Notes under the pieces: generated by a model
What the model was told of the DNA's origin: nothing
The model's database searches: none
What the model saw: the letters and a program-made list of their open reading frames with translations, nothing else
Program-made: the position numbers and the translations under genes
Assembly (NCBI GenBank): GCA_008632985.1
Contig: QPGO01000087.1
Location: 124,001 to 188,000, forward strand
DNA: 64,000 bases
Direction of reading: 5' to 3'
From: Psammoneis japonica
Lineage: Eukaryota
In this document: positions 1,480 through 46,944 of the stretch, piece after piece
Numbering within the stretch: the stretch's first letter is position 1
How the letters are laid out: each line of letters starts with the position of its first letter

Positions 1480-3627
1480 TGGATGCAGTGATGAACATTC
1501 TCTTCTTGCGCCTTGTCGATATGTCATGAACATTCTCTTCGTGCACACAAGTTTTGAGGCGCTCTTTGGCATGCAGAAAAATCGTTGTCTTTGGCCTCTT
1601 TGCAAGAAGCGAGCTGGCACGTCCTGCGCAACGTCAACGTTCAACATTCGTTCATGCTGGCGTGGGTTCGCGCGCGCGTACCTACAGCACACCTGTCAGA
1701 GGGGGCGGCGGGGGTGGTCATCATCTTTCTGTCTCTCCAGTCTACTCTCTACGGCAGCAGAGAGTGCAGTGCCGGCACGCATGATGCAGTGCTGCCGGTG
1801 ACCCACAGAGCACAGGGGTTGTGGGTTGTGGCAGCAACACCAGTGTGCAACTGCAGAGCAGGAAGATCCAAATCCCAACCCACTGCCATGCCACAGCAAG
1901 CCAGTCAGAAGGGCAGAGAAGGAAAGGGTTGGTGTCAAAAACGGGTTAATCTCATGTGTTGCTGGCGCTGCGGCCAGCATGGCTGAGCCCCGCACAAAAC
2001 AAAAGATGCCCTTGCTGAGCCCAAAGGCCAAAAAAGACTTTGCAGCGTGAGTCTCTCCCAACTCAGAGAAGCGCCACATGCAGACGTGACTTGTTTCATG
2101 TTGCATGGCCGAGTTGCTGTGACCCCTGTCCGGAGCCAGCACCCAGAGCTGTTTTCCCACGGCAAAACCGCGCAAACATGCCTCTGCGGCGATGCCCTCT
2201 TTCGTGCTGCCGCTGTTCAACACAACAGCTGCTCCCCCAAACACCACTTGTGCTCTTGACAACAGAAGCCGAGCCTCGTGTTGGGCGAGGCATGTCCTTT
2301 GTTGTTGTGCACTTTCGCCCTGGTCTCTCATGAAGCACCGGCACCAGCCCACTTGCCTCTGCTCTTCTGCTCCCATTGCGGCTCTGCCGGTTGCGCATCA
2401 CTGGAAAATGTGTGTCTCTGTTGCCATCCACAGCAGCCCATCACCACTGGCACATCTGTCAATTCTGTCCTTGCGCCACCTGCTGCAGCAATGTGACCAT
2501 CTGCAAATCTCTGCCTCTTGAGACACTCTTCTTGTGCACCAGCCTGAGTTCAACATGGTGCGCGACAAACTCAAAAATGATTTTGTTGGAACTCAAAAAG
2601 AGATGGTTGCAACTGACATGTCGACTCCTCTTTGCAATGTCCTCATCAACCCAACAGCTGCAAGGCAGCTGCGCACATCATCAAAGATGCCTGTTGGCCA
2701 AGCTGCAAAACTGTTTGTGCAGTGTTGCACAGACTGCACAAACGCAAAGGCACTGCAGCTGTGTGCACTCTTGATGGTGCACACAATCTGCTCAAATGGC
2801 AAACTGATGCAAAGCACAAAGCCAGAAAAAACACCTTTTGAAGAGATGGCGCCATTTCTTCTTCAGCAAAACTGGCCAGAACAACACAGACTTGAGGCAC
2901 TCAACAGGTGGAAAAGTGTCATTTGTCCAAGAGGTGGCATCATGCTGCCAATCAAAAAAGTTTTTGACCAAGAAGGAATCCTGTGCATTCAAGTTGCCAT
3001 TGAAGCCAAAGCCCAGAATGTTGAGATGCAAAATTCTGGGATTGTCACCCGTGCAGAATCTGATGATGGCAACATCTGTGGGCACAACTGTGAGAAATGG
3101 GCCACAAACTTGAGCCCCCACAATGGCAACTGCTGCATTTTGGTTGTGACTCAAATCAATGCTCAGGAGAGTGCTGTGAGGGGCCAAGTGGGAGGATTGC
3201 AAGAAGCATGCCATTCCTGCCTGCTTTTTGTGGCTGTGACTGCAACATCAAGGCAGACAGCTTGCCTTTTGTGGAGACGATGGAAGGGCACATGACTGCG
3301 GTGGACAAGAGGCAGTTTCTCAGAGACATTGAAACAAATTTCAAGTGGCCGCCAGCAGCACCAGCTCACAGCATTGATGGTGGAGGGCAGCCTGCCAAAG
3401 GATTTGCAGAAGAAGCAGAACATGCCATGAAAATGTTCCTTGGTCACCCCATCCTCAGATTGACACCAAAAGAAGGATCCGACCTGAGTGAGGTGCCATT
3501 GAACTGGTGCCTCCATGTGATCACCCACCCACAATTTTTAAAAAAACAGTGGCAAAGGATGGGGAAGATGCCTTGGATTTGAAAAGTTGCCCACGGCCAT
3601 TCTTGGTGGCCTTCTTCAAAGCAATGG

Positions 3628-4023
3628 TGACAGGATTTGAACAGGATTTGGGTGCGCGCGAAATGTCGCGTGCCATTTGGTTTGCCGCGCACAGTTTTGT
3701 GTGCTCTTTGGTTCCGCGCGTGCGCGCGCCATGCAGTTTGCTTTGAGCCACACGGCTCACAAGAATGACAACCTTGAGTCCAGTCGAAGCCAACACGAAA
3801 ATCCTTCTCCTGCACAGTTCCCAGTGCAAATTCTGCAGGAAAAAAACCCGGATGTGGACACTTTTTGGACACTCCTGGACACAAGGATGACAGCAGCCCG
3901 ATTGCACCGACTTGCACGTCTTTCGGCTCCTGTGACGGTCTCTGAGCGGAGACTCATCTGCCATTTAGACAGCAGCAAGGAGTTGTTGTTTGAATTCTTG
4001 CCATTTGCCTTCAATTTCTGTCA
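3628..4023 (+). repeat. 5' LTR (396 bp)
   Basis: TGACAGGATTTGAACAGG...CTTCAATTTCTGTCA, repeated at 10425-10705. Confidence 0.95.
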
Positions 4024-4040
4024 GATTAACAGTCTTGCTC
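4024..4040 (+). promoter_or_regulatory. Putative primer-binding site complementary to a tRNA-Asn(GTT) anticodon arm
   Basis: GATTAACAGTCTTGCTC abuts the 5' LTR; its reverse complement GAGCAAGACTGTTAATC contains the Asn anticodon loop CTGTTAA. Confidence 0.6.
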
Positions 4041-4957
4041 ATTGTCAACCCATTGAGCAACCGCCATCGTCGTCGTTGATTTACCGACGACGCTTTTCAA
4101 TTCTGCGTGGACCTTCGTGTGCATTCTACGTACATCGGCAAGTCTACGCGCATTCAATGCCAGGCATCGGCAGGAATTTAACGTCACCGTCAAGTCTCCT
4201 CACCGCTGGATGTCTGGATTGATTGCGCTGCCTTTTGTCGCTGAAGACATGCATTCAACGGTTGTGTCCAAGTCTGTCCTTGATCCTCATCCCTTCATGT
4301 GCCCATTCAACGGTTAACGGTCAAGAACCCCACATGTTCAAGGATCTTCGTCGCTGTAGACACACATGTGCACACATCTTCACGGCCAAGAACTTGAACC
4401 CACTCTTTGGACTGCGGCTTTGCTGTCACTCTACAAGCACGCCGAGCCTGTTGCACCTGATCTACCCGGACTGCTGGTGCTCTGCAGTTCTGCTGGGTCC
4501 ACCAGGACGACTGTGAGAGCAAGCAGCCGTGATTGCAGCCTGCGTTGGGGCGAGGGTGTTTTCCCACGTTTGTTCGTTCGTCCACAGAGCCTGATGCCTG
4601 CATCAACTGGCCAGCCTGATCGGGAAATCCAACCGACACAAAATGAGAACAGTTTGGGGGTCTTGTCCACCTCCAGTCAGCTTGCCTGCAGGGGTTTGCA
4701 ACCCGCTGCTCCGCTCGCAAGCAACCCAAAGCGCTGCTGGCTGTGGGTTCGGACGTGCCGGCACAACTCTGCGGACCGGATGGGAAGTTTAGCACTTGAC
4801 AACGAACGGGATGACACAACCCGGCGACTTCTGATTTTAAGACAGTTCAAGATTTCAAGTCAAGTCCATTTCAAGCCAAGTCCATTCCCACTCAAGTTTC
4901 AAGTCTGCCTCCACGTCCCAACAAAAATCGCTTGTCCTGACACCGCTTTTGTCTGCC

Positions 4958-7900
4958 ATGGTTCTCACTCGTCAGCAACAAACCCATGGTTTCGAGCACG
5001 TTGTTGGAACCGTGCTTGCCCAAGGTGCTGGAAGCCCTCTTCGTTTGGCTTTGACCCATGACGGCACGGACTCGCACCAAGAACTGTTCGCGTTCACACC
5101 TTCCCAAATCGACTCGCTTGAGTGCGACAACGGCACTGATGTGATCCCATTGCCCCGAGGTCATAAGAACATGTTGGCAGCTCCAGCCAGTCTGCACATT
5201 GTCAAAGCACACAAAGGCCTTGATGTTGCCAATGACTCCTGTTGTTTGCGCATGAGGAGTTCCTTGCCTGCCGCCTCAGCCCCGACCACATGTCCTCTGT
5301 GTCCGTCGGCAGCTCACCTCTCGCACCTCCACATGTCACCAACCCGACCAAGGCACGCGACCCGGTGCGAGACTTCAAGCAAGGCATCCAGCATGACCCC
5401 ACTGCTTTCACGGCTCTCAAATCCGACAAGCAGTGGCACACTTGGCACACCTCACTTGTGGCACAAGCCCGTGCCCAAGACGTCGAGTGCATTTTAGACT
5501 CGTCGTACAAACCAACCACCCCCGAGGACAAACTGCTCTTTGCTGAACAGCAAAAGTGCATGTTCGCCATCTTCAAACACATCCTTCTCACCGACAAGGG
5601 CAAAGCCCTCATTTGCAAAAATGTGGGGTCTTCTGATGCCCAGACCGTCTGCCGTGCCTTGTCCGAGCATGCGCTCGCCTCCACCTGCGCATCTGTCGAG
5701 TCTCCACCTTGCTCATGTGCCTCACCACCGCACGCCTTGGTGATGGCACTTGGAAAGGTCCGACCCACGGGTTCATCCTTCATTGGCAGGATCAGTTGCG
5801 CAAGTGCAAGGCACTCATCCCAGCCAGTGACCACTTCTCTGAAGGACAGAAGCACGTCATGCTCGAGAATGCCGCACATCCTGTCGAGGAACTCCGTGCC
5901 GTCAAGAACCAAGCTGATCAACATCGCACGCAGAGTGGCAAGAGCCTCACATGCGATCAATGTTGTGGCTTGCTCCTCTCCGCGGTGGCTCAATGCGACA
6001 GAGCACATTTCAACCCAAGACGACACCTCGAGCTCCCCGCCGCGCCACATGCGCACACGACGTCCACTCCGAGGAACCATCCGATGATGTGTTCTATGAC
6101 ATCGACAGCGACATTGACGTCCTTCAGGCCAACGCTGCCTGCACCCGCGGTCCAGCCTCGCCGGCGACCAATGGAAACGTCTCCCTCCTGACCACCAACG
6201 GATTTGGGATTCGTTGCCCCATTCCTCCAAGGCGATCATCCTTGAGCATTCTCGTCCACCTCCCCGCAACCCACGAGCCAGCAACTGCCATGAGTCCATT
6301 GCGGTCAACCTTCACGACCAACGACTTGGGAGTGACAGTGATGTCAACTTGTCCAACACGACTCCTGCTGACTCTGGTGATCCCACTCAAATGTGGGTGC
6401 CACTTCAGACAATCCCATTCTGGCGCATCTCACCAAGCGCAAGCCACTGCCACCCGGTGATCTGCAACGCCTGTTGTCTCCTAACCAAGCCCCCAACGCC
6501 AGTTGACTGGGCCCATCCGCTGCTCCCTCTACCTCGCCTGCTCCTCCAGATGACACAGAACTTGACGGCCACACTTGCCGCGCGTCAACAACCACAATGT
6601 CATTTGCTCTGCCTCCGCTCATCGCTCCACACGCACTGGTGCTCTAGTCGATCGTGGAGCCAACGGCGGCATTGCTGGCAACGACGTTCGCGTCATTGCA
6701 TGCACCTCTCGCCAAGTCGACGTTCAGGGCATTGACGACCATCAATTGGTGGACATCCCCATTGTCGCCGCTGGTGCCATCATTGAGACACAGCGTGGTC
6801 CCGTCATCGCCATCCTCCATCAGTGCGCATGCACGGGAAAAGGCAAGACCATTCACACCTGCGGCCAGCTCGCATGGTGCAAACATGATGTCAACAATCA
6901 CTCTGTCAAGGTGCCCAATGGCTTGCAGTGCATCGCCACCCCTGATGGCCATGTCATCCCAATTGACATCAAGGGCGGCCTGCCTTGTGTTGCCATGCGA
7001 CCCCACACTGACGACGACTGGGACACCCTGCCAATGTCATCCTTGCCGGTGACGACACATGGGATCCTTCCGTCCTTGATCACTCTGTCACTGACGACGA
7101 CCGGTGGTGCGACGCGATCTCTGACCTGCAGGACGATCCCACTGCCAACCCATTTGATGAGTGCGGCAACTGCCGTCACCGTGTCGTTGTCAACAAGGCC
7201 ATCATGTCCGCCTCCTTGTCTGCCGATCACGCGTCTGCCCTCGATGACCACCTCATTCCGAATGACGACGTGTTCTACGAGTGTCACCCACACGCGATTG
7301 ACCACAAGGACGACGACGTTCCGCCCCCGGAGTGCAATGTGCAGCCCAAGGACCCCCCCTGCGAGTCTCTTTGGCCCTGCTTTGGTTTCCAACCTGCCGA
7401 TGCGGTTCGTCGCACTTTCGACTGCACCACCCAGTGTGCCCGCATGCCCGCCGGTGCACACCTTAAGAAGGCCTGCAAATTGCCCAACCCCGCCCTTGAT
7501 GTGCACCGCCGCAACGAGCCTGTCGCCACTGACACCATTTGTGCCGACACCCCGGCCGTCGACTCTGGTTGCACCAGTGCCCAACTGTTTGTTGGCACCG
7601 AGTCTGCCGTCACTGACGTCTGCGGCACCAAGACCAACAAAGAGTTTGTCAACACACTCGAGGATCAGATCCGTGAGCATGGTGCTCCCTCCAAACTCAT
7701 CAGCGACCGTGCTCAAGTTGAGATCAGCAACAAGGTGCTCGGGATTCTATGAGCCCTCTTCATCTCCAGCTGGCAAAGCGAGCCTCACCAGCAACACCAA
7801 AACTTTGCCGAACGCCGACACCAGACCGTGAAGCACATGGTGAACACCGTCATGGACCGTTTGGTTCGCCTGCCCACACATGGCTGCTGGCGCTCATGCA

Positions 7901-10380
7901 TGTTTGCTTCGTGCTCAACCACACAGCGTCCCCACGTCTCCACTGGTGCACGCCCCTCGAGACTCTTGCTGGCTCCACCCCGGACATCAGCCCATTGCTT
8001 CACTTTCACTGGTGGGAACCCGTGCACTTCCACCTTGATGACTCTGATTGGCCATCCAAATCCCGTGAGTTGCACGGACGCTTTGTTGGCATTGCTGAGC
8101 ACGTCGGCCACCAGATGACCTTTAAGATTCTCTCTGACGAGACCCAGAAGATTCTCTGCCGGTCCAATGTACGATCCGCTGCCACCGATCCCACCGTTTG
8201 AAACCTGGGTCTTGATCCTCCTGATGGGGAGCCACCTGAACCCATCATCAAATCTCACCATGATGACAACCCCGTCGATTCACCTGATGGGGAGATCAGG
8301 ACACCCAAGATGCCAGTTTTTGATCCGCAAGACATCATCGGATGCACCTTCCTCATGCAGCCACAAGAGGACGGACAACGCCACAGAGCTTGCATCGTCA
8401 AGGCCGTCAAAGATCACGAATGGAAAGTGAACGGCAACCCCGAGCTCACTGAGTTCGTCTGCTCTGTCAACAACGACGAATGCGAGGAAGTCCTGGCCTG
8501 CAACGACATCATGAATCACATTGAGCAAGAAGACGAAGACACTGCTGTTTGGAAATTCCGACATGTTGTGTCACACAAAGGACCTCTGAAGCCTCACGAC
8601 CCAACCTTGAAAGGCTCAAGCTACAACATCATGCTTCAATGGGAAAGTGGGGAGATCACGTCCGAGCCTCTTGCCATCATCGCCAAGGACGACCCTGTCA
8701 CCTGTGCCATCTGTGCACGAGAGAACGGACTTCTCGACACTGATGGCTGGAAGCGGTTCTGCACCATCGCGAGGCGCCAGAAGAAGCTGTTCCGCATGGC
8801 CAACCAAGCCAAGCTGTGCTCCTTCTGCACTGCACCTCGCCACAAGTGCGGACACGAAGTTCCCCAGAACTGCAAACATGCCATGTCCCTAGACGAACAC
8901 AACGGCAACCGCAAATGGGGAGATGCAACCAATCTTGAGATGGACCAACTCGACGAATACGAAGTCTTTCATGACTGCGGGCCCTCTGAGTCTTCCACTC
9001 CTCCTGCGGGACACAAGAAGATCCGAGTGCACCTGGTGTGCGATGTGAAACACGACGGCCGCCACAAGGCATGACTCGCAGCCGATGGACACCTCACGGA
9101 CGCACCCATGACAGTGTCCACTCTGGAGCAGTCTCTCTTTGTGGCCTTCGGCTGATGATTTTCCTGGCCGAACTCAACGAGTTGGAGACATGGGCCACCA
9201 ACATCGGCAATGCCCACCTTGAAGCCACCACCAAGGAGAAGCTGTACATTGCAGCTGGACCCAAATTTGGCAAACTCAAAGGCCACATTCTTGTCATCTA
9301 CAAGGCCCTGTGTGGACTGCGCAGCTCCAGCCTCCGCTGGCACGAGCGCTTCGCCGACTGCCTGCAAGCTGAAGGTTTCTTCCCCTGCCGCGCCGAACCT
9401 GACATTTGGATGTGCAGGAACGGCAACCACTGTGAATGTGTTGCCGTTCATGTGGATGACCTCGCCATTGCCATGAAGGATCCTCAACCTTTCGTCGACA
9501 CTCTCACGGAAAAGTGCAAGTTCAAGCTCAAGGGTGCGGGACCGATTGAGTTCCATCCAGGCTGCGACTTCTCCCGGGATCCTGACGGCACCTTGTGTCT
9601 GTCTCCGTGCAAGCACATCGAACGCATGGTCGACAGCTGCACATGACTGTTTGGGGAGAAACCTGTCACCAACGTCCTGTCCCCTCTGGAAAAGGGTGAC
9701 CACCCCGAACTGGACACCTCCGAACTGCCAGAGCCCGATGGCATTCAACAGCTCCAGTCTCTTGTTGGATCCCTCCAATGGGCAGTGTCTCTTGGTCGAA
9801 TTGACATCACCACAGCTGTCATGTCACCATCTAGCTTCCGAGCTGCACCCCATCAAGGCCACTTGGATCGTGCCAAACGCGTCTGTGGGCACCTCTCCAA
9901 GATGCGACACGGCGCTCTCTGCGTTCACACGGAAGAGCCCGACCATTCGGATCTCCCTGCACCGGCCTGTGAATGGATGCATTCCGTGCATGGCAAAGCA
10001 GAGGAGATGATCCCGAAGGATGCTCCACCGCCCCTTGGCAAGTTTGTCACTGCCACCCACTGCGTCAATGCAAACTTGTGTCATTGCATGCTCACCGGAT
10101 GCTCTGTCATGGGAATGCTCCACTTCCTCAACAAATTCGGTTGCATGTTCGGTGACAACAAGTCGGTTGTAGACAGTGCCACCATCCCGCACTCCAAGTT
10201 ACACAAGCGACACACTGCTCTCTCGTTCCATCGTGTGCGTGAGGCGATCGCCTCTGGCCACCTTGAGCTCCACTTCATCGAAGGCTCCCGCAACCCTGCT
10301 GACATTCTCAGCAAGCATTGGGGTTGCTCCCAAATCTGGAACCTTCTCCGTCCCCTCATGTTTTGGAACTTCATTCCATC
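4958..10380 (+). pseudogene. Copia gag-pol polyprotein, frameshifted and hypermutated
   Basis: gag-like DPVRDFKQGIQHD...AQARAQDV; protease ALVDRGANGGIAG (~6640); integrase VATDT...KLISDRAQVE...WQSEPHQQHQNFAERR; RT DVKHDGRHKA, KALCGL, AVHVDDL; RNase H tail MFGDNKSVV...HRVREAIA...NPADILSKHW. Confidence 0.93.
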
Positions 10381-10424
10381 CGAAGTCGAATCTGTTTCTG
10401 TGACTCCTCAAGCAAACTGGGGAG

Positions 10425-10705
10425 TGACAGGATTTGAACAGGATTCAGGTGTGCGCGAAATGTCGCACGCCGTTTAGTTTGCCATGCACAGTTTGTGTGT
10501 GCTCTTTAGTTCCGCACGTACGCGCGCGATGTGGTTTTTGCTTTCAAGCCACACGGCTCACAAGAATGACAACAGCAGCCCGATTGTGCCGACTTGCACG
10601 TCTTTCGGCTCCTGTGACGGTCTCTGAGCGGAGACTCATCTGCTGTTTAGACAGCAGCAAGGAGTTGCTGTTTGAATTCTTGCCATTTGCCTTCAATTTC
10701 TGTCA
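10425..10705 (+). repeat. 3' LTR (281 bp, lacks ~115 bp present in the 5' LTR)
   Basis: Direct repeat of 3628-4023, preceded by polypurine GGGGAG (10419-10424). Confidence 0.95.
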
Positions 10706-13700
10706 ATGGTGTGAGCACCATGGACTGTCGTCAGGTGCTGTCAATGGAAATGTGGGCAAGGGGAGGGAAACCAATTGAGCAGGAGAGGATTCCATGTCCT
10801 CTGTGCAACAACTGACAAACAACAAGGCAATTGGCTGAGCTCAATGCAGAGTTCCTCTTGGACTCCTTAACATCAACCATGTGAGAGCTTTTTTGCAGGA
10901 GCAGTGTGGCACCCTCCCACCATCACATGCTGGTGCTGTCCCACGGCCTTGTCTTGAGGAAGCAGTGTCAGCTGCTTAAAAGATGAAATGAAATGGTCCA
11001 AAGGGTTGCAGCCAGCTCCATGCTCCTTGTCAGAGTTGCACAAAGATCCCAAAACATGCTCAATTGAGCAGGTCATGCCACTTCTGGCAGGAGAGCAATG
11101 GCAATGGGGTCAAAAAAGGGCAGTGCACACAGCACGGAAGTCATGAAGATTGGCCCTTCAACCACCATGCCTCCACTTGAGGATTTGTGACATGTCATGC
11201 ACTCACACAAAAATGCAATGAACACAGCACAAAAATGTCACATCATGTGCAATCCAAGCAAAATGTGTCACATGATGCATTTGCTCATTGCAAGCAAATC
11301 TCCACTGGTGGAGATTTGCTCCAAGGGTGTGGCATCTCCAGCATGCAAAACACCCAGGTGGCAAATGTTGACATTGAACTTTCTTAATTGCAAGAATGGT
11401 CCCCCAGAGCTTTTGGCAGCGAGTGTGCACTCCAAAACAAAATCGCATGAATTCTTTGTTGTGCCCACATTTGAGAACATTTTTAACTGTTTGTGACACA
11501 AGTGAGCAAATCTCCACCCATTTGCTCAAGTCCAGTGGTTGAAGGGTCAACGACAAATCAATCAACAACAAAACACATCAGAAGTGAAATGGTGCAAGGT
11601 GCCATGCTTGTTGATGTGTTGACTGTGGCAACTGCAATGTGTCCACCTTCTCTGTGACAGAGGGAAGGCACAAGGAAACAGGCCAAAGTGTTTTGCTGTT
11701 TTGAATTCTGATGACCCCATCCCAGAAATCAGATCCCATGCAGGGTGCGTTCTGCATTTGAGAAAGAGATGGGTGGCTGCATTCCACATCTTGGCTCTTG
11801 GTGCAAGTGTCCCATTGCAGATGGTTGCTCCCATTCCCTGGCTTTTCTCAGAGGTCCAATCTGTTTGGCACAAGTGCACACAGAATGAACCACAGACACA
11901 CTTGCCAAAGCAATGCTGGAGTCCATTTAGCCACATCAGTTGCATCCCACCATCCCTTTTGAGGAAGGAGCTTTTGAGTCTGGCAAAGCAGAAAAGGAGG
12001 TGAAAGCTGAGGGAAGAGTGGCTCTGGCATTCTTTGAGACACATGGTTCCAGAGAAAGGCATCACAAACATGAAAAATTGAGATGGCAGCTCAAAATGAA
12101 GCCAACAATGGAACTCTAACAATGCAAACATGTGCTGACACAGAGGGAGTGGTTGCAAAGGGCAGAAAGAGGGCCAAACTGACAGAGACAGAGCAAGACT
12201 TTGCTCTCATTGGGTGACATTGGACAAGACAAGAGCCATGAACAAGCGGGGGCTTGAAGGCAAGGGTGGGCTGGCAAACGAGTCTCTTGACTCAAAGCAT
12301 GAGCAAGTGGAGATGCTGGAGTGCTTGCACTGAGAAGTGAAGGCAGGAAACCTGCCAAGGATGCTCCTCTCTCACTGCACTGAAGTTGCAAAGCCTTGCC
12401 ATGATTGTTTGTTGAAGCAGCTGACGCATGTGACAAACCTGTCCACAATCTGCCAAAAGGACCTTCTGCTGAAAATTGAAGAAGATAACCAAGTGTGTGG
12501 GGACAAGAATTTCAACAACACAATTTGCTTGTGTCCCAATGGCAATGAGATGATCTGCCTGAAACACCTTGTTGGGAAGCACTGCGACATTGCTGAGGCA
12601 GGTGAGGATGAAGAAGGGATCAAGTTGCTTTGATGGTCAAGCAATGCATGTGTTCAAGATGTTGCACCCAGTTTTCATTTCCCATGTCTGCATCATGCCA
12701 TCAACTGCTTGCAAGGGCTTGCAAATCTCTGTGCTCCACACCATGCCCCGGATCCAAAAAATCTGCACCTGGCTGACAGATCTCACTTTGAAAAAACTGA
12801 AGAAAAGAAGACAGCTGCTTGAAAGAGAAAGGAAACAGCTTGGGACAACAGAGCACAGAAGAAAGCTGTGGATCTGCAAAAAATTGCAGAGGGAAAAGAG
12901 TCTGGCTGACTGCCGCTGACAGTTTGTGTTGCGTGCACTTGCTTCATCTTCAACCAGCACCAGCGTGGCATGTTTGCAAACAAATTGTGGTCAGTGTCAA
13001 CCATTCCCCCCACAACTCTGTCAATCTGATCTCAGGCTGCCGTCTAAAGTGGAGACCTGTGTGCTCAAATGCCAAACCAGTTTGAGCTGACTGCATCATA
13101 AAAAGGCTGTGCCACTCGAATCGGTTTTCTTGCTGCACAGCAAGTGATCAACAGCAGTGCAGACTCAGGCGGTGTCTGCCACAAATGTTTTGCCATCAAC
13201 CATCAACAATCACTGCAATTCTTTCACACCTCTTTGAACTTTCCAGGCATGGTCACTGAGACACATGTTGCACATTGAGGTGGATCGCTGGTGCCAAAAT
13301 GAGGCATGTTGTCACACAATGCAACATCCGCTGGCATGCAATCTAGCATCAAGTCTAAATCAAGCATTGACACGCAGAGCCCAACTTGTTTAAGACAAGG
13401 CATCCACTTCTGTGCCACTCCTGGAAACCAACTGTTGCCATCACGATGCCAAATTGATCCCAATGTTGCAACCCAATGACCTTGATGATGCATCATCATC
13501 ATGCATGTGAGAGCCTCTCCCTCCTTGACAAAGTGCTCCTTTCCCTTTCCACACTTTTCCTCTGCATCAGGAAACCAAACTTTTGTGATGTGGCACATGG
13601 CTTTTTTAACCCTGCACCCCAGAGATGTTTTGCCCTTTTGCCACAGATTTCATGCCACTTGCTGCTTGTCAGGTTCTCCCAGCTCAGTCCACCCATCTCT

Positions 13701-14604
13701 GCAATCTCATCTTCCTGCACCATGCATTCTTTCAATTGTTTGGCCTTGTCTTTCAGCTGTGCTTTTGGTTCATTGGCAGCACAGGATGCACCGTGAAACA
13801 ATCATTTCACTCTCTCAAGCTCATCTCTTGACCAAACATTCTCTCCTTTCCCACTTTGTCTGGATCAAATGCACATGCCTTTGTGCTGCCACTGCTTTTT
13901 GGATGATTGGTTGCAGAAAAGGCAAGTCCCTTGCATCACCATCATCATCAAGGTGCAACTCAATGGGATCCAATGATGCACAGGCTGACTCAGCATTGCA
14001 AAAGCAATTGACCTTCATGCAGCAGGTCAGCACTGGGTGGTGTGCAGTCTTGTCATCTTTGTTCTGATCCTCAATGTTGCTCCAGTGGAAGTCAAGCAAT
14101 TCCACTGTCTCAGAATCCACATTCTCCAAAGGAACCCTGTTGTCATTCTTTAAATGAAAGGATTGAAGTGGGTTGAGCCAATGCATTTGCAGTTGCCGGG
14201 AGATTCAGGCAGTGTGCAAGAGTTCCCAAAAAGGTGATGGCAGGACACCTCCATCATGCTGTTGCTCTTCACATTGCTGCTTCCATGCAGCCTCCTCTTG
14301 CTGGCACAATGAAGGTGACAACAACTGCACCTCTTTTGATCACGAGCATCAACAAAGTCCTTCATGCTTTGTTTGCATTCCTCTTTGTCACGGCAGATGC
14401 ACGGGTGCAGTCAGACACCATTGCAATGGTTCCTCTGAGAGGATCACACTTGCGCTTGGGTGAGGGTGTGGATGATTCATCTTTCATCATCACCAGAGGC
14501 AGAGGAACACCAAAGCCAACAGACACACCAGTGACGTGTTCCAGCCGCACGTGACCCAAATCGTGCACAAAAACGACATTTGCGCGATTTTTGCGCGGTC
14601 TCTG

Positions 14605-15060
14605 ACTTACGAACGGTTTTTCACCACCAAAAGTATAGATTTATTCAAATTCTAATGTTTTGCAACACTAACAAGACTCGTGTGAGTGTTGCAAAATCAT
14701 TGTTATCGTGCCATCAATGTTTTTCATTGCGATAAACGAATCGTAACACAACGGATGATTTTCGGCGAAATTATTGCCGTTATTTGGATGTTAACTAAAT
14801 ATATCTTTCTACGATGGTTTTTAGTATATTTGCTACTTACAAAGAAATTTACGTATAAAGAGTACGGACGTACAATCATCATTGAGTCTACTGAGGAAGT
14901 TTATGATACATGTCCCATGAGGAATTTGATACCCACAAAAAACTATTTAATTCTTCATAATTATTCATACTCTAGACGCCTATAAAAGCCAATCCGTTTA
15001 AGTATTTTATATGAAAATACTGCTTACACTAATATATACATACCTTATATTCAAAATCGA
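14605..15060. other. AT-rich, TpA-rich island between two TpA-depleted blocks, with a 16-bp-arm inverted repeat
   Basis: About 22-32% GC in sampled 60-mers; about 50 TpA in ~450 bp; arms TTTTGCAACACTAACA (14658-14673) and TGTGAGTGTTGCAAAA (14681-14696). Confidence 0.75.
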
Positions 15061-15921
15061 TTGTCGTTTTGTGTGTCACCTGGGACTGGAACACGTCCAG
15101 TGGTGACAGGCTGCTGTTGATGGCAATCAAGATGTGTGTCTTTGAGAGGGGTGTGATGGCCGAGCTGCAATGGGAGCTGAAGAGAAGAAAAACAGACTGG
15201 TGCTGATGCTTCTTCAGCCCATGGAAAGCACACAATGGATGATGTGACTCATCCAATGCAAGGCTCCCAGTGTCTGTTGTTAAGAGTGCAAGTGTTGTTG
15301 GGGAGAGCAAGCATCTTGTTGAGCAGCAGCAGCAACATGAAAAGAGGAAGTCATCAGAGGCCATGGTTTTGATGTGGTGAAAACATTCTGGCTCATCACA
15401 GTGGCCAAAAAGAGTCCACACCCCCACCTGGAAGGCAACAGGCAACCACACCCATGGGTCTGTGCAGGAAAGGTTTGGCGGCATTTTTCTCCTGCAGAGT
15501 TTTGGCACACTTGCCAGCACCATGACCAGTGGCTTTGTCCCACACTGTGTCAATTCAAAAAAAGAGGCACTGTTAAGTTGGAAAGAGCCATGCATTGAAA
15601 CCAATTCTTCAGCATCAGGCATGGTGGGTGCTTGGCAACAAGAGTGTGTTCTTGACTGAGTGCAAGCAAAAAGTGAGCATCTGCAGTGATGCAAAACATC
15701 TGTCAGCTTGTTGATTGGCTCTTTCTGTTTCATGATGTCATCATGACAAATGCCTCCAAATTAACTAATTTTGTTGCTGTTTTTGTGCTTGTTGAGAAAA
15801 ATTGTCATCAAGCAATGTGCCACAGACCCAGTGATGTGGCTCTGCTTCTACAAAATTGACATCTTGATGAACCAGCATGATGCCCAACTTTTTTCACACA
15901 TTTGACACACACACACACACA

Positions 15922-15956
<35 letters not shown>

Positions 15957-17230
15957 CAAACAACAAGTGAGGTGAAGCCTGCTCATGATGGCAACCATGG
16001 GCTTGTGTGCACACCAACATTTTCAAGCCAAAACAAGATGTTCACAAACAATCTGTGCTTTTCTCCACAAGCGTTGCACCGCTTTTGCAAATGAGGAATT
16101 CCACAAGTCCCAGAAGACAGCTGCAAACTTGCAATGGTGCCCACCATGGGCCACAACATCACAGATGGCAAGTTGCTGTCCAGCTTGTTGTGACTTGGTG
16201 TGCCACAATTTTTTGGTGAAATGGTGCAGCTGACAAGCTTTTTGTCATTTTGCAAAGTGATTTGCATTGCCAACCATGGCACTGCTCCAACAGTGGTTCA
16301 CTCAAGAGATCATCAATGAGCTGCTCTAGCTGGGCATTGCACTGCAGCAGCATGGGTGGGCTCTGGCTGGCCCAGATGTTGCTCCACTTTCCGGCCATTT
16401 TTACAGCTCAGCCAGCATGGGGTGGGTGTGCCAGGAGTGTGGGTGCTGGTGTCTCCTGTTGTTGGAGTTGCCACATTGCCAGCAATTTCACAGCAGTGCC
16501 AAAACAACTTGTTTTTGCTCCAGCTGTGATGGGCTGAGCAGCACTGCATCAAGAGCAATGAAAATGTCCCAACAAAAGATGTGACCACAACTGTGCAGCT
16601 GGCAACATCACTCTTTTTTGACTGGATCTGCCATCTCTGGGCCTTTGTTGTGCTGTGTTCAATGCTGGACTGCAGTGTGGGTGGAAAGATTTCTTCTGAT
16701 GCTGCGCTGTGCCAAGTAACAGTCATCCATGTTCATGTGAACCTTTCAGCACATGCTCTGTGGCAGCCACATGTTGCAGATGTTTTTTGCTCAATGAGCT
16801 CCATCTTTGGGTGGGACCTCATGGCACCATTCTTTGGGCTCCTTGTGGGCACACACACAGCTCATGAGCTTGCAATGGACCATGATGAGAAGAACGGCAT
16901 CAGGGGGAAGGCTCAAAACCAGCACAGAGTTGCACCAAAGGAACAGCTTTTGCCACTTTCCCTGGTGTTGGATGCACTGTTTTGTGCACCCACCATCATG
17001 ACACCCATCTGCACATGCAGGAAGAAGGGCTGTGCGCTGGTGCTCTTCTCTTTAATTTTGGAGGTTGACAGGTTTTACTGCCCATTGGCACTGCATGTTA
17101 TCTTCATGATGCAAAGCGTTCATTGGTGTTGTGCCTTTGTTGTGCCATTCTTCTCGTTGCTGGCAGCAGCACTGTCAGGACACCTTTTGCCCACCCGTCT
17201 GTTCTGACAATGCCCCAAGTGCACGCCAGC
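15060..17230. other. TpA- and CpG-depleted degenerate block B (unidentified remnant)
   Basis: Very few TA or CG; Cys/His-rich spurious ORFs. Confidence 0.8.
15905..15952. repeat. Compound microsatellite (AC)n(TC)n
   Basis: An (AC) run followed directly by a (TC) run. Confidence 0.95.
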
Positions 17231-24036: not shown

Positions 24037-24734
24037 TACCCGCAAGTGGAGACGTAGTCGTGGACCCTGCCTCTTCCATTGAAACGATTTAAAACAGATA
24101 CTGTGTGGCATTGCGACGAGCCCCTGCTTCTGCAGCTCTGTGTTATGAATTAAAACTCACTGTATTTGTTAGACTATGTAGAGCACCACTGAGAGTCGAT
24201 GTGAATCTCCAGAGAGACACACAGCACACTACTCCGCGTCCACCTCCTTCACAAGATCAAAACTGATTCAAAATCTTTTGCTGTTATCCATTTGCCAGGG
24301 GCGCAAAAGTTTCTCTCGAGGGCTCGGCGGAAAGGCGAAAGAAGCATCGAGTCGTCCCAACGCCGCGACAGCACAAAGTGGCGAATCGCACCTGCAAGCG
24401 GACACGGTAGCGCCGGTAGTAACCAAGAAGGCTCAGAATGTTTGGTTTTCAAATCAAGTCATGCTTGTACAGTAGGGGTGCTGCATCTTGACATACTGCG
24501 GGACATCCTTGCATGTCCTAGCTTGGACATGCAGAGCGACGGCCATGCGAGATTCGAGCTTGGCGTCTTCTTGCTATTACAGTTTCCCACCACTTCCAGC
24601 GCCACGAACAAATCCATTTGCGGTTGAAAAACTTGGCTGCCGTGACAATGCCCTTCAATCTGCCAAAAGAAGAAGAACAGGTCGCAAGGCAATAGGATGT
24701 GCCAAATCCGACATTGATCGTCAAAGAAAATGCG

Positions 24735-25043
24735 TGATTTCCATCTGCCACAGGCAAAGAATTTCTCTTTGAAAGGCAGCAGGAACTAAATGGCACATGA
24801 GAGGCATGCAACGCAACGTTCAGCGTCTCCTCTTATTTTGAACCTGGGATCGAAGATTTGATTTCCATCTGCCATGAGCAAAGAAGCAATCTTTGAAAGG
24901 CAGTTGGAAAGAAAAGGGAACAACAATCGAGTTGTTCTTTGCTCGGGGTTTCGTGGTAGCAGCACAACCCTCTACGTGACAAAAGATTCTGAAATGCTTG
25001 ATTTCCACATGCCATGGGCAAAGACACATCTTTGAAGGGCAGG
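24735..25043. repeat. Three dispersed ~45-bp direct repeats
   Basis: TGATTTCCAyyTGCCAynnGCAAAGA...TCTTTGAArGGCAG at 24735, 24859 and 24999. Confidence 0.8.
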
Positions 25044-26067
25044 CGGAAAGTCATTGGAACACTGGCAAGCACGGAGCAGTTCACCTGGCATGCCTCGGCA
25101 GCGGCAGTGCGCTGCGTGGAATCAAATCCGTAAGAAGACGAAGAAGCTGAAACAGACGCGGTGGCGGCAGTTGCAAGAGACGTTGTGGAGACGCTTCGCT
25201 TCAGAATCTGCGGCTTTTCAACAGCAGTCTTGCCTTGGGCTGGCTGCGTCTTGACGGACATGATGACGTTCTTGCAAGTCCTCGCCCAGATGTGAAGAGC
25301 AACCTTGCAAGCCTTGCCGTCAAAACGTTTCATGTGATTGCGGCGTCGCCACCTCTTCATGGCCTTGGACAGATCCTTTCGTTTCTTTGCTTTGAGAAAC
25401 TGGGAAGCTGTGACAATTCCCAGGCTTTCCAAGAACTCAGCCTGCCATGGACATGGAATGTGCCGCAGGGCGGTGAGATCGTCAATCGAAGAATCAATCA
25501 CGAGATTGACGCTGTTGTCCTCAGTGTTTGGCTGAGGAAGGCAAAAGTCAACACCTGCAACGCCGGCAGCTTCGGGGGATGACACCTTGCGTTGATGGTC
25601 CACATCACCCAGGTTTGAAATGACATTGGCACGAGATTTGCCAAAGGCGGCGGGGCAAGTGGACGTGGTTTTCTTGATTGCTGCGGGCGGTGTGAAACGA
25701 GGTTCCTTCTTTCTCATTTCATTGCTCTCTGTGGTTGAGTCAGATTTGCACCCAGTGCGAGTTGGACTGGGAGACCGTGGCCGGCCACCAACATCCATTG
25801 GAACAGTTCGAGATGACAGCTCACCGTCAAACTGAATGACTGTCAAACTGAATGACTGTCAAACTGAATGACTGCTTCTTCCTCATCAATGACGACGAGC
25901 TTCTTTTCGGAAGAATCGCTGTCGTCGACATGAGAAAGCTTGCTCTGCCTTTGGTGCTTCTTGTTGGCCAGAATGGCGGAAGTTGCAGCGACTTTGGCAG
26001 CCGCCATTGCCATGCCAACAAAAGACTGAGATCCAACAGTGGAGGCCTGAGATTTTTCGGCCGACAT
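24833..26067 (-). pseudogene. TpA-depleted gene-like sequence of unknown function, frameshifted by a 16-bp triplication
   Basis: MSAEKSQ...EEEAVIQFD joins in frame to GELSSRT...WQAEFLESLGIVTASQFLK...KRWRRR if two of the three 16-bp units are removed; almost no Tyr or TpA. Confidence 0.55.
25826..25873. repeat. Perfect 3x16-bp tandem repeat GTCAAACTGAATGACT
   Basis: Copies at 25826, 25842 and 25858. Confidence 0.95.
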
Positions 26068-26589
26068 GTTGAGAACACCGTTGCAGAGCAGAGACCACAG
26101 AGAAAATTGACAATTTGTGAGTTGTGACAACTCGCGTCACTCTTGCGTTGTATGTGCATTCGTCGTTGTAACAGCCACAAAGCACTCAAAGGTGCCTCCA
26201 AAGGTTGAAGTGCGATGGGGCCCTACGTGGACCAGTTCGTTCCCCCAGGTACCGACAGATTTTTGATGTCAGTGGCAATGTATTATATGTCGGTGGCATT
26301 TTTTAGTACAAATGATGTATAATTCTACATACGGTATGAAGTACGTACAAACACTAATGGGTTTTGACGTCATCAACAAACGGCGTCGCGCGCACTCCTC
26401 GCGCGGCGTCAAATCCTGTATTCGGGAGACGGATTGACACTCGCAAAAATTTCGCAAGAGATGATGGCAGCTGGAGCGTGAAAGCGAAAAAAATCAAAAT
26501 GTGAGTCAGTCGCGGGCAAAAGCGAAGGAAAATGATTCCTGTTGGTGTTCATATTGATAGTTTGCCTCGTCAGGAGAGTTACTAAAACC

Positions 26590-30002: not shown

Positions 30003-30229
30003 TGCTGATTTTCCCAAGGAATCTCGATACCGATTATTCGTTTTAGAAAAGGCCTTTCTGACGCTACAGTTTCTCAATTCTGATACGTGGCATGAAGCAG
30101 ATAGTAATAAGTCTCACACTTGCTATGCTCGTTGTGCTACTAGCTATCCCTCGATTTCTTTCGCCATCGTTGCCGCGATCATCGAGCGCGTTGAATTTGA
30201 CGCAGGCTCAGACGTCGTACAGACGATGA

Positions 30230-32070
30230 TTGAAAGAGACCGTGCGTGCCGTGCGACAGCGGTGTTCATGCAGCACACACAATTGTGGGACCCACCTGCG
30301 GCGCTTTCTTCTTGCACAACAGCTTGCTGTTTGAGAGGATCACAAGTGTGCTGCAATGTCCTGCCTCTTCTGTGCTTTCTTTTTGTATTTGCAGCTGTGC
30401 CAGCCCTGTCACATCCGCCCACAGTGTTCGTCGTGTGCTCCTCACAAAAAGCAGCCCACGCTGTCCAGCAGCAGCAGCTGAAAAAGCAGCTTTCAAAAGC
30501 TCCCATCATGTCTTGACAGTGCCAAGGAGGCAAAAGAATGCACCTTGTGATTTCAGTGGTTTGAATGACAACTTTCATTTTTCTTGCACCAGAGCAAAAA
30601 GCAGAGGTGCTGTGGTCAAGCCGGTGCAGGAACTCTCTTTGCTGTCTGCTGTGTGTGATTTTGGTTTCTCTCTTCCTTTTTTGTGGGAGTGCAGTGCAGC
30701 ACTCCAGTCATGTGCAGTGAGTTGTGGGGAAAACACACTGTGTGTCTTGTTGACCACTTCATTTGTTTTGCAAAACCAGTGGCTGCCAGCCAACCAAGGA
30801 GTGCATTCAATTGAGCAACTCCACTTGCATGCAGAGCACAAAAGATCTTCCACCTGCTGCTTCCCATGGCATTTTGCTCAAATTTGTCTCTTGTTCAGCA
30901 TTGGGTTTTCATCAATTTAAAAATGGTGCTGCATGCTCACAAAGTTTCACAAGTGTGGCTGTGATCTTCATGCTTCAAGCAATGCAAAAACACAGCACAA
31001 CACAGGTGCGCTGTCACATTTTTTGCAAAAAACCTGCCAGCCCACATTTCAAATCTGCTTCAATGATTCCAGCCATTTTGACATTTTCCTGCAAAAGCTG
31101 CACACAGACTGGCATGCCAAAGCAACCCCCCACCCAAGCAAACCTCAAGAGGAAACATGGCAATCATGCCATGCCTCTCACAACTCTGAAGTTGACAGAT
31201 TGACCTGGCATTGTCACTCAAAGCTGCTGTCAATCATTGTGCAGGCTCCCCATCTTCTCTTTACAATGGGGCACTCTTTGCCATCTCTCTGCTGAATGCA
31301 TGCTCTTTGCTTTGCTTTTTTGTTGTGTTGAAGCAAGCCACTCAACTTTCGAATGTCAACCAGACCGGGGTTGTGGCTTTCTGAGTGCTTGAGACCAAGC
31401 CATCCAAGATGCTTCTTCTAACTCAGATTCCAGCCAAAGAGTCAAACACCAAAAAGAGAAACAACTGACTGCTGCCAGGAGCCCTTCCATTTTGACAACA
31501 TTGGGGACTCTTCTCATACATGCAAAAGTCTTCTTGCACCTCTCTCTGCTGCTTCTCACACCATCCACAAAGTTCACAACAAGACCAAATGTTTTAAGAA
31601 CAAGGAAAGTGAGACTCTCCCTTTGACTGCAGAAAGCCACAAGTGTTTGCACATGAAAACATCATCGATGCCCGTCACTTTGGCACAAGTGAAAAGTTCA
31701 CCACTCAGAAGAAGCTCGCTTGTCAACATGTTTCATTGAAAGATGTTCTGCTTTTGTTCTCCATGCATCAAGATGTGCAAACCACCAAGTGCAAGGAAAG
31801 GGTCCAGAGGCTCATCTGTCACTGCGCAAAGGCTGCCTCAGAACAAACAGTGGTCAGTCAACATTCGTTCTGTGGCAGAGTCCATTGCATTTTGGCATTG
31901 TTGTGTTTTCAAGAGGGGTTCTTGGAAAGGATTGCAACTTGCAATGGGGTTGAATGGAGTTTCTTCTTTGCCATTTTGCAGCTGCTCAACAGATCCACGG
32001 AAGAATTCCGCTGCCTGAGAAAAAAGTCATCTCTGATGGATGCCATGATTCACCATGGTGAGGCAACCAA
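30230..32070. other. TpA- and CpG-depleted degenerate block (unidentified remnant)
   Basis: About 6 TpA in ~1.8 kb by hand count; abrupt return to normal composition on both sides. Confidence 0.8.
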
Positions 32071-33049
32071 CTAAGAAGAACTGGTCGGTCGTGACCAACT
32101 CACTGGATCACAGAATTCAATGATGACATGTGTCATTGTTTTGGGAAGCCGTGATTCGCTGTGGTGAGGCAACCAGCGGAAGCTCCACCCAGTCGGTCGT
32201 GTCATGAAACTCGCTCTAGATTGGAACTGCTGTAAACCAGCAATTTGGCACAGAGAAAAGAAATACATGCCGTAGAGCAATCCTGCTCAACATCAAGATG
32301 GCCATCCTTTCTTTTCATAAGGCTCCTCTGGAGCTGACTTCGTAGTGTGTACAGGGCATGGTTGTGTTTGAAAGATCCATCATCCGTTGTCGTCCTTTCG
32401 TGCCTGTTCATCATTAATTTGTAATCACCCACATTGGTCAACGGTGATACTTTGAGTCTTCGGTGTGCACCATTAGTTGATTTGTAGCTTGAAAAGGTGT
32501 CTGACAGTTGTGCAGGTAAATCCGAATAGGCCGACATGTCACAGGCCACGGTACGCGACATTCTACAAGAGAAATGCTTGCCAAATAAAAACGAGACAAC
32601 TATTTACCGATATTGGAACTATATCTAAGATCGATTTCGGCTTCCGCCTCTCTAACTACAATCCTGATTCCTGCCAAGGCGATGCTGCGCAACCGCTAAA
32701 CAGCATTTTCTTAAAGGAAAGTAGGTCATGCGACCTCTGTATCATTTCGGCTGAAAGATGTACGCAAGAAGACACTTCTCCACCGCCGAAAATCGGCCAC
32801 CGTGCGAGTCAATCTTGACCTTGACATCGGCGGGCCCGACAATATGAGAGGAGGGAATTTTGAGACTTTGTCTGGGGCGATGTATCATGAGGGATGCTAT
32901 GCTTCACCTACAGTACAACTTTGCTCAGCTGTGGCAGAGAAATCATTACTCCTTCCAGAGACCTCGTGTGCACGACGACAATGTCCGAAAAGCGTTGCCA
33001 GTTTTAGGCTTCAACACAGTGTGAGTTATGTTCTCTCAATTGCACCAGC

Positions 33050-46200: not shown

Positions 46201-46944
46201 GAGTGCAGTGCACACATCTGGTGACTTCTCTTCAGCAACACATTCAATGCAAAAACATGACATCTGACGTGCTCTTGTCCAGAATCTTGCAATCGTGACA
46301 TTGTTGCACATGTTTTGTTCAACCCAAAAACTGTTTCCAGGGAAATGACAATGGAGCACTTGTGGGGACTGGAAAGTGGCTGGAAAGGGCCAAGAGATTG
46401 ACTGAGCAGCACCACACAAAAGCTTTGTGCTCTTTGCAATGGGCAAAGAAGTGGGCAGTGCTGCCTGTGACCACATGTTGCAATGCAAGATGACATTGTG
46501 CCTTTCCTGAAACATGGAGGGCTTCATGATGTGAGCAAAGATGGAGTGTTCTGGAACAAAAAAGAAGAGTGTCTGGCAGCACCATGGGCTGTGGTGGCTC
46601 AACAGATGGATTTCAGGGCTGTGCAGGGCCTGTGGGGCTGCCGTTTCCTTTGCTTTGTGCTTTTCATCAGTGGAGAAGAGGTGGATCATTTGCTGCACAA
46701 CACCAGGGGTGCTGGGCATTTCATGAGTGCCAAACCTTTTTCCAGCGTGCGCTGGAGCAGAGTTCTGAGACACTCATTTTTCCAGGGAGAGTCACAGAAA
46801 ATGTGTGTGCAGCGGGCAAACTCATGCCCCAAAAGGAAATGTCAAGTGTTTTGCTGGCAACAACTCTGCAGCCCAGGAGTGCAGGCCCTTGTCTGTCCTC
46901 ATTTGGCTGTCAGCCAGCCATCGCCTCTTGGAAGCCACACAACA

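Follow-up and report, generated by a model that had tools for sequence, protein, structure and literature searches.

The 64,000-base stretch of the Psammoneis japonica genome analysed here (contig QPGO01000087.1 of assembly GCA_008632985.1, positions 124,001 to 188,000 of the forward strand; hereafter the window) contains blocks from which the dinucleotide TpA has almost vanished. The question raised by this locus is why the few remaining TpA stand so often between a pyrimidine and a purine (YTAR, where Y is C or T and R is A or G). The most probable answer, to which we give a chance of about three in four, is a TpA hypermutation graded by the flanking bases, which has left its slowest targets as survivors. 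The DNA concerned includes a Ty1/copia long terminal repeat (LTR) retrotransposon, located on the plus strand at 3628-10705, and the old repeat into which it was inserted, the middle part of which occupies 10706-14532.

Contexts of the surviving TpA

The window consists of normal DNA and five sharply bounded TpA-poor blocks (1751-14607, 15049-17052, 24579-26150, 30146-32216 and 43643-52475) with a summed length of 27,337 b. In the blocks, the observed-to-expected ratio (o/e) was 0.05-0.07 for TA, 1.4-2.0 for TG and CA and 0.09 to 0.79 for CG, and in five long normal segments it was 0.53-0.61 for TA and about 1 for CG. The normal DNA, with which the AT-rich island of 441 b at 14608-15048 (TA o/e 0.97) was classed, holds 1440 TpA in 36,663 b. 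A comparison of all 16 dinucleotides between poor and normal DNA revealed depletion of TA and CG only and a rise of TG and CA only (pooled o/e in the TpA-poor DNA: TA 0.06, TG 1.73, CA 1.61). AA and TT were unchanged, the AA o/e being 1.20 in poor DNA and 1.15 in normal DNA. The depletion is confined to the blocks, including the copia element and the repeat with paralogous contigs, and the neighbouring genes are spared.

The sequence-only reading of this locus had counted 14 TpA by hand in 10706-14560, and a recount returned identical numbers. These 3855 bases contain exactly 14 TpA (TA o/e 0.05), compared with about 151 expected at the density of normal DNA, namely seven TTAA, three CTAA, one TTAG, one CTAG and two ATAA; TAC, TAT and GTA are absent. 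YTAR accounts for 12/14, its share in the background being 0.173 (binomial p 4.6e-8); for TTAA, the figures are 7/14 here and 63/1440 there (p 8e-7). Because this stretch had been picked as striking, the remaining TpA-poor DNA was scored separately, and YTAR was found there at 42 of 89 survivors (p 8e-11). Over all five blocks, the share of YTAR was 54/103 (52%) versus 249/1440 (17.3%) in normal DNA (Fisher odds ratio 5.3, p 1e-14), with TTAA contributing 26/103 (63/1440 in normal DNA). The survivors of 43.7-52.4 kb had also been described as mostly of this type, which overstated the case: at 43643-52475, YTAR makes up only 14/28, beside five CTAC and four TTAC. In the copia element, a hand count of the survivors gave YTAR 16/37, alongside eight CTAC and five GTAC. 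Both of these regions retain TAC, and therefore its absence belongs to the chosen stretch and not to the process.

Loss rates were fitted with Poisson models on ten strand-folded NTAN contexts, in which length-scaled counts from normal DNA stood for the expected ancestors. The null model of a single loss rate for all contexts was rejected (deviance 108). A purine/pyrimidine rule performed much better (deviance 33.4), and a four-letter, one-flank additive model fitted the ten contexts (deviance 8.2, 6 degrees of freedom, p 0.22) and was superior to the purine/pyrimidine rule (likelihood-ratio test, p 3e-6). Grouped by the base that follows the edited A, the cumulative loss (with bootstrap intervals) was 0.40 (0.20-0.63) for A, 0.93 (0.67-1.26) for G, 1.50 (1.23-1.87) for C and 2.62 (2.19-3.21) for T. 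Thus, the order of the loss rates was TAT > TAC > TAG > TAA, about 6.5 : 3.7 : 2.3 : 1, with C and G close to each other. ATAT left no survivors of about 90 expected ancestral sites and TTAA left 26 of about 47; these two contexts, identical in composition, had opposite outcomes, which excludes AT-richness as the sole cause. In addition, A at position +2 was enriched in the survivors of the strata with A, C or G at +1 (for example, TAGA 36/56 vs 202/623), which means that a second downstream A adds protection; where +1 is T, no survivor has A at +2. The proposal that YTAR is the most resistant context is therefore supported as a bias, and YTAR itself is an approximation of a graded four-letter rule that reaches to +2.

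A reading without any flank preference would take the survivors as the ancestral make-up of the blocks or as TpA newly made by ordinary mutation. It draws on the fact that the ancestors of most blocks are unknown, and that the TpA at 1948 and 13356 of the window read TG/CA in all public contigs covering them, which leaves their polarity formally open. Against it stands the background itself. Since host genes may poorly represent transposons, copia-bearing loci were used as a second background: of 244 metagenome loci with coding sequence related to the RNase H region of copia, 80 were kept. The 60 loci with a TA o/e of at least 0.6 (279,717 b, 14,627 TpA) gave 18.3% YTAR and 4.9% TTAA, which matches the normal DNA of the window. 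Strong TpA depletion was not found among these 80 loci (lowest o/e 0.31), and the three mildest depleted ones (L052, L077 and L072) showed no YTAR excess (20/125).

The purine/pyrimidine class of the flanks offers a further control. Both decay processes, that of TpA and that of CpG, are transitions, so the flank class of pyrimidine-purine steps is fixed and a test based on it is robust to both. The share of all pyrimidine-purine steps with a 5' pyrimidine and a 3' purine (Y_R) was 22.9% in the poor blocks and 24.2% in normal DNA, and these near-equal values indicate that the ancestors of the poor blocks were not unusual. TpA newly made by transition would inherit the flank classes of CA/TG, which are 22-23% Y_R in the poor blocks, and this leaves the 54/103 YTAR unexplained (p 5e-11). 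Some survivors are also ancestral by homology, namely four conserved Tyr codons that are still TAC in copia and a TTAG common to both LTRs. Ancestral composition and TpA re-created from CA/TG do not account for the survivor bias, and a reading without flank preference, being largely refuted, is barely credible. The comparison of NTAN contexts that had been suggested together with the hand count thus gave no match between survivors and any background (YTAR 52% vs 17.3%, 18.3% and 22-23%).

Direction of the change and the deciding flank

The direction was determined in the copia coding region (5251-10381), to which 40 full-length polyprotein homologs could be aligned, with frameshifts present. 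Columns were considered conserved at an agreement of at least 70% among at least 15 aligned residues from these homologs. At 43 conserved Tyr columns, the copia element carries 21 Cys (TAY to TGY), 12 His (TAY to CAY), four Tyr and six other residues; Trp was kept at 22/22 columns, Pro at 44/44, Gly at 63/65 and Lys together with Asn at 56/62. The loss of Tyr to both Cys and His, with Lys/Asn kept, means that TpA was ancestral, that both strands were hit and that ApA was spared. Conserved Arg was kept at 35/58 columns, with nine Cys and seven His, and these changes are the CpG decay.

Among 278 aligned columns of the two LTRs of the copia element (about 3628-4026 and 10425-10705), 24 show a difference, mostly at steps derived from TA or CG, and at five positions one LTR has TG and the other CA. 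LTRs are identical at insertion, and their present differences at TA-derived steps therefore place the change after the insertion and at the DNA level. ADAR-type RNA editing before reverse transcription was rejected as a candidate, given the occurrence of both Cys and His products and the divergence of the LTRs after insertion.

The WA motif of DNA polymerase eta (W is A or T) covers A to G at TpA. Error-prone synthesis of this type during heterochromatin repair, with flank effects of the polymerase, would thus yield the change seen at TpA. However, ApA shows no depletion, with the AA ratios given above, and Lys and Asn were kept at 56/62 columns versus 4/43 for Tyr, so only the T-preceded adenine was hit. 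The comparison with the WA signature, also suggested earlier, therefore showed no fit, and we consider this source very improbable.

The losses of TpA and CpG are uncoupled in two places, the copia element and the block 24579-26150. This bears on a route resembling CpG decay, in which the adenines of TpA in silenced repeats would be methylated on both strands before being deaminated, the flank rule being that of the methyltransferase. Such a route would explain why the target dinucleotide is palindromic, why both strands are affected alike and why CpG was lost from the same blocks. The uncoupling speaks against it, as does the fact that we know of no TpA-specific eukaryotic adenine methyltransferase, and both the route and a methyltransferase origin of the flank rule seem quite unlikely.

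Flank-graded hypermutation leaves two mirror versions of its rule, since survivors cannot separate an edited adenine followed by T or C from one with A or G two bases back; the fitted order of losses (T 2.62 > C 1.50 > G 0.93 > A 0.40) is by itself compatible with both. Products were therefore used to orient the rule. At the 33 Tyr-to-Cys/His sites, the 3'-neighbour model was better than the mirror model (5' RTA) by 4.6 natural-log units; a hand count of the products by 5' base gave 11 Cys : 5 His with a pyrimidine and 10 : 7 with a purine. Products in YTAY contexts exceeded those in RTAR contexts (74% over all poor DNA, above half in 6/7 blocks), and the product difference was +0.34 (0.15-0.58) when 23 homologous copia coding regions served as the baseline. 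Among the individually resolvable sites inside the poor blocks, 8/9 agreed on hand reading with the 3'-neighbour rule. An excess of Cys over His was found both in copia (21:12) and after the addition of 11 partly mutated homologs (53:33).

Only the purine/pyrimidine class version of the product test was kept, as the host-DNA baseline is too poor for single contexts. The tetranucleotide product excess with the host baseline was dropped, because the ATAA/TTAT products were both negative after subtracting half of the lost CpG. A self-comparison of the window yielded so few repeat pairs that no spectrum could be derived site by site. Taken together, the orientation tests weakly favour the 3' neighbour of the edited adenine, which is probably the deciding flank. 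Note that the 3' pyrimidine and the 5' purine, which had been proposed as two fast contexts, are one rule seen from two strands.

The Tyr-to-Cys/His products along the copia coding region (5251-10381) were clustered (11 runs vs 16.3 expected, z -2.0), as would be seen if adjacent edits tended to fall on one strand. A runs test on all TG/CA steps gave nothing consistent, with z from -2.2 to +1.7 in the poor blocks, like in normal DNA. In a set of 240 public homologs of the copia reverse transcriptase (RT), 11 members had at least a quarter of the conserved Tyr columns occupied by Cys or His (P0073, P0199, P0226, P0229, P0230, P0244, P0252, P0270, P0272, P0274 and P0285), and the same TpA decay seems, from these sequences, to occur in other environmental genomes. 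Some of them contain a single product type, with 0 Cys : 5 His in one case and 4 Cys : 0 His in two (heterogeneity p 0.054).

Proposed mechanism and comparison with known systems

We propose the following course of events. An old dead repeat, later split by the copia retrotransposon and by a MITE-like element (similar to miniature inverted-repeat transposable elements), would have undergone a two-strand hypermutation at the DNA level that converts TpA to TpG or CpA nearly to completion, CpG decay being a separate process. The surviving TpA would then be the slowest targets and not a random sample, the chance of loss being set by the adjoining letters. On each strand, the T-preceded adenine would be changed fastest before T, then before C and G and slowest before A, and a further downstream A would protect it more. 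TpA is self-complementary, and a site therefore survives only if both its adenines are slow; such a rule would yield a symmetric survivor motif, TTAA > CTAA/TTAG > CTAG, which is YTAR.

The agent may be an enzyme that reads the sequence; the most plausible kind is a DNA adenine deaminase, which would convert A to hypoxanthine, read as G. The claim of an enzymatic preference rather than drift is upheld as far as the bias against the background goes, and the enzyme itself is our inference from it. A different course would be context-blind damage, with the resulting lesion (for example, hypoxanthine:T) better repaired in TTAA-like surroundings; it predicts the same survivor spectrum, and a damage rate cannot be separated from a repair rate in the sequence. 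It calls for two specific activities although a single one is enough, and we regard it as unlikely.

Several points weigh against flank-graded hypermutation with a deciding 3' neighbour. As just said, a dependence of repair on context would be indistinguishable in its footprint from a dependence of damage on it. The survivors of all poor blocks are strand-asymmetric (CTAC 15 vs its complement GTAG 3, p 0.008; Y_Y 28 vs R_R 12, p 0.017), and the CTAC/GTAG asymmetry is not predicted by a symmetric flank model, though it may be due to the coding-strand make-up of the elements. All 103 survivors were drawn from this one 64-kb window, and the ancestral sequence is known only for the copia coding region, background DNA serving as its substitute in the other blocks. 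As for the orientation, the 3'-neighbour model equals a coin flip on the Tyr sites (log-likelihood -23.0 vs -22.9), and a coding-strand bias would be an equally good explanation for the surplus of Cys over His. The YTAY/RTAR product test is reversed in the copia block (0.41), and its composition-based form presupposes both a particular baseline and CpG decay that is symmetric. Finally, the sites 3294, in a poor block, and 14857, in the unmutated island, contradict the rule.

The closest known system was found in Bigelowiella natans, the integrated viral DNA of which undergoes TpA-targeted A:T to G:C hypermutation (Mettrop et al., bioRxiv 10.64898/2026.01.13.699255). According to the text of this preprint, 231 new mutations arose in mutation-accumulation lines at an episodic, roughly 1000-fold raised rate, RT and DDE domains were enriched among TpA-poor genes and an ADAT2 homologue was named as a candidate adenine deaminase (10.64898/2026.01.13.699255). 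As described there, the two systems agree in that transitions occur only at TpA, giving TpG or CpA depending on the strand, that only foreign or mobile DNA is affected in an otherwise normal genome and that the long-term footprint is low TpA with high CpA and TpG. They differ in that B. natans is a chlorarachniophyte with a mildly depleted viral region (Rho TpA 0.45 vs an o/e of 0.05-0.07 here), for which the preprint presents measurements as new mutations; here, the depletion lies in retrotransposons and old repeats of a diatom-like genome and is known from its footprint. A word search of the main text of the preprint gave no flank analysis, and its supplementary mutation table may hold the flanks. 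Thus, TpA-only two-strand hypermutation has already been described in that preprint, the main text of which does not contain the graded flank rule. No paper on TpA loss in diatom transposons was found in a literature search.

Ascomycetes such as Neurospora undergo repeat-induced point mutation (RIP), in which C becomes T, for the most part at CpA, so that TpA is created. The process described here resembles it in being limited to repeated or mobile DNA, acting on both strands, being dinucleotide-specific with a graded flank preference and running near to saturation. The base pair and the direction are opposite, since TpA is destroyed and CpA/TpG are made here (TA 0.06, TG 1.73, CA 1.61). RIP is triggered by sequence duplication beyond a threshold length; here, the high-copy copia element was hit, but a high-copy element of 565 b and a tandem duplicate of 660 b (88%) were spared.

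The adenine edited by TadA and ADAT2-ADAT3 is preceded by U or T, as with U33-A34 in the anticodon loop. For one TadA-8e variant, editing of A in the context YAC has been described (PMC13109818), so a taste for T-A-pyrimidine is within the range of the TadA family. The YAC taste differs from the present rule in that the fastest context here is TAT and not TAC, and the substrate is the chromosomal DNA of whole repeat domains. The TadA/ADAT-like taste is a resemblance only. ADARs prefer U before the edited A and G after it; the change of A to G and the U/T before the edited A are shared with the present process, but TAG is among the slower contexts here.

To our knowledge, no enzyme has been shown to carry out natural A:T to G:C hypermutation of chromosomal DNA. 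It is conceivable, though at this point speculative, that diatoms, and together with Bigelowiella perhaps many lineages of the stramenopile, alveolate and Rhizaria (SAR) group, possess a dedicated DNA adenine deaminase as a genome defence acting on silenced mobile DNA. Such an enzyme would read 5'-T-A-[T>C>G>A]-3' plus a downstream contact and would erase TpA, every Tyr codon and the TAA/TAG stops until TTAA-like sites remain. If so, the flank rule would be an enzyme fingerprint for picking candidate deaminases and for spotting their action in other genomes, and in its quantitative form (TAT > TAC > TAG > TAA, with a protective A at +2) it would be a testable specification for such candidates. 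The same order among the Bigelowiella mutations would bear on whether one system is common to distant algae. For annotators, the rule helps to spot decay, and the long TGA-only open frames that this decay creates are not genes. Base-editing work would also have an interest in a natural deaminase that acts on DNA adenine in a defined context.

Elements of the window and minor observations

The TpA-poor blocks, the parts of the old repeat and the MITE-like element carry no strand assignment. Besides the middle part (10706-14532; 14 TpA left, CpG o/e 0.15), the old repeat has a left part (1751-3622) and a right part (15098-17052; eight TpA left, five of them YTAR), both depleted of TpA and CpG. 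In a public contig, 3622 is followed directly by 10705, the 7082 b between them being absent, and thus 1751-3622 and 10706 onward belong to one old element into which copia was inserted. Paralogous contigs align to 10706-14532 at about 85% identity. No Pfam family was found in the old repeat at the thresholds used in stop-to-stop open reading frames (ORFs) of at least 60 aa. In its outer parts, 2205-2450 is 68.5% similar to 15334-15097 in inverted orientation; this pair may represent two copies placed head to head or a single large element whose long ends are inverted.

The copia element has nearly lost its TpA and largely kept its CpG. Its LTRs have TG..CA ends with a target duplication of 4-5 b (ATGG/AATGG), and its RVT_2 domain is located at 8990-9643 (Pfam, E 7.7e-14). 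It belongs to a high-copy family, to which 13,021 public contigs align, and its named relatives are from Cylindrotheca closterium and Entomoneis paludosa, on which the description of the genome as diatom-like is based. The MITE-like element of 565 b (14533-15097), situated inside the old repeat, has terminal inverted repeats of 26 nt (85% complementary) and an AT-rich interior; it is not hypermutated and keeps 51 TpA and 29 CpG. The depth summed over the bin 14526-15036 is about 19,000, which makes this element look high-copy, and it is either very young or too short for targeting. The nesting gives an order in which the old repeat lost TpA and CpG, copia lost TpA only and the small element lost neither.

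The Pfam scan covered the poor blocks only (81 ORFs of at least 120 aa and 145 ORFs of 60-119 aa). RVT_2 was the sole match above the cut-off of Pfam itself; the XPG_I, ESM4 and Megourin matches were below it and were taken as chance. No deaminase was found among these ORFs, the rest of the window being outside the scan.

The small block 24579-26150 (1.6 kb) is isolated among normal genes. It has kept its CpG (o/e 0.79) and has six TpA left, one of them YTAR; its minus strand carries a stop-free frame of 341 codons without a Pfam match. The block 30146-32216 has eight TpA left, with four YTAR. The large block 43643-52475, the second example of the sequence-only reading, has the 28 TpA mentioned above.

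The differences of public and paralogous contigs from the window were considered on the 40 listed of 1495. Over the 794 b of 1751-2544, eight positions distinguish the window from a nearly identical public contig, and five of the six listed differences are of the TpA or CpG type; for example, the window has TTAA where the contig has TTGA at 1948, and CTGT where it has CTAT at 2128. At 13356, the window has CTAA and all four covering public contigs have CCAA. These differences may be allelic and come from a still active process.

In the normal DNA, 55736-56394 and 56402-57057 form a tandem duplication of about 660 b with 88% identity, in which TpA is kept in both copies; a duplication of such a length did not by itself attract hypermutation there. 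The 89 CpG survivors of the CpG-poorest stretches (10706-14532, 15098-17052, 30800-32216, 43900-47000 and 51000-52100) were also context-biased, GCGC being 2.95-fold and ACGT 0.38-fold relative to the background (chi-square p 0.0014).

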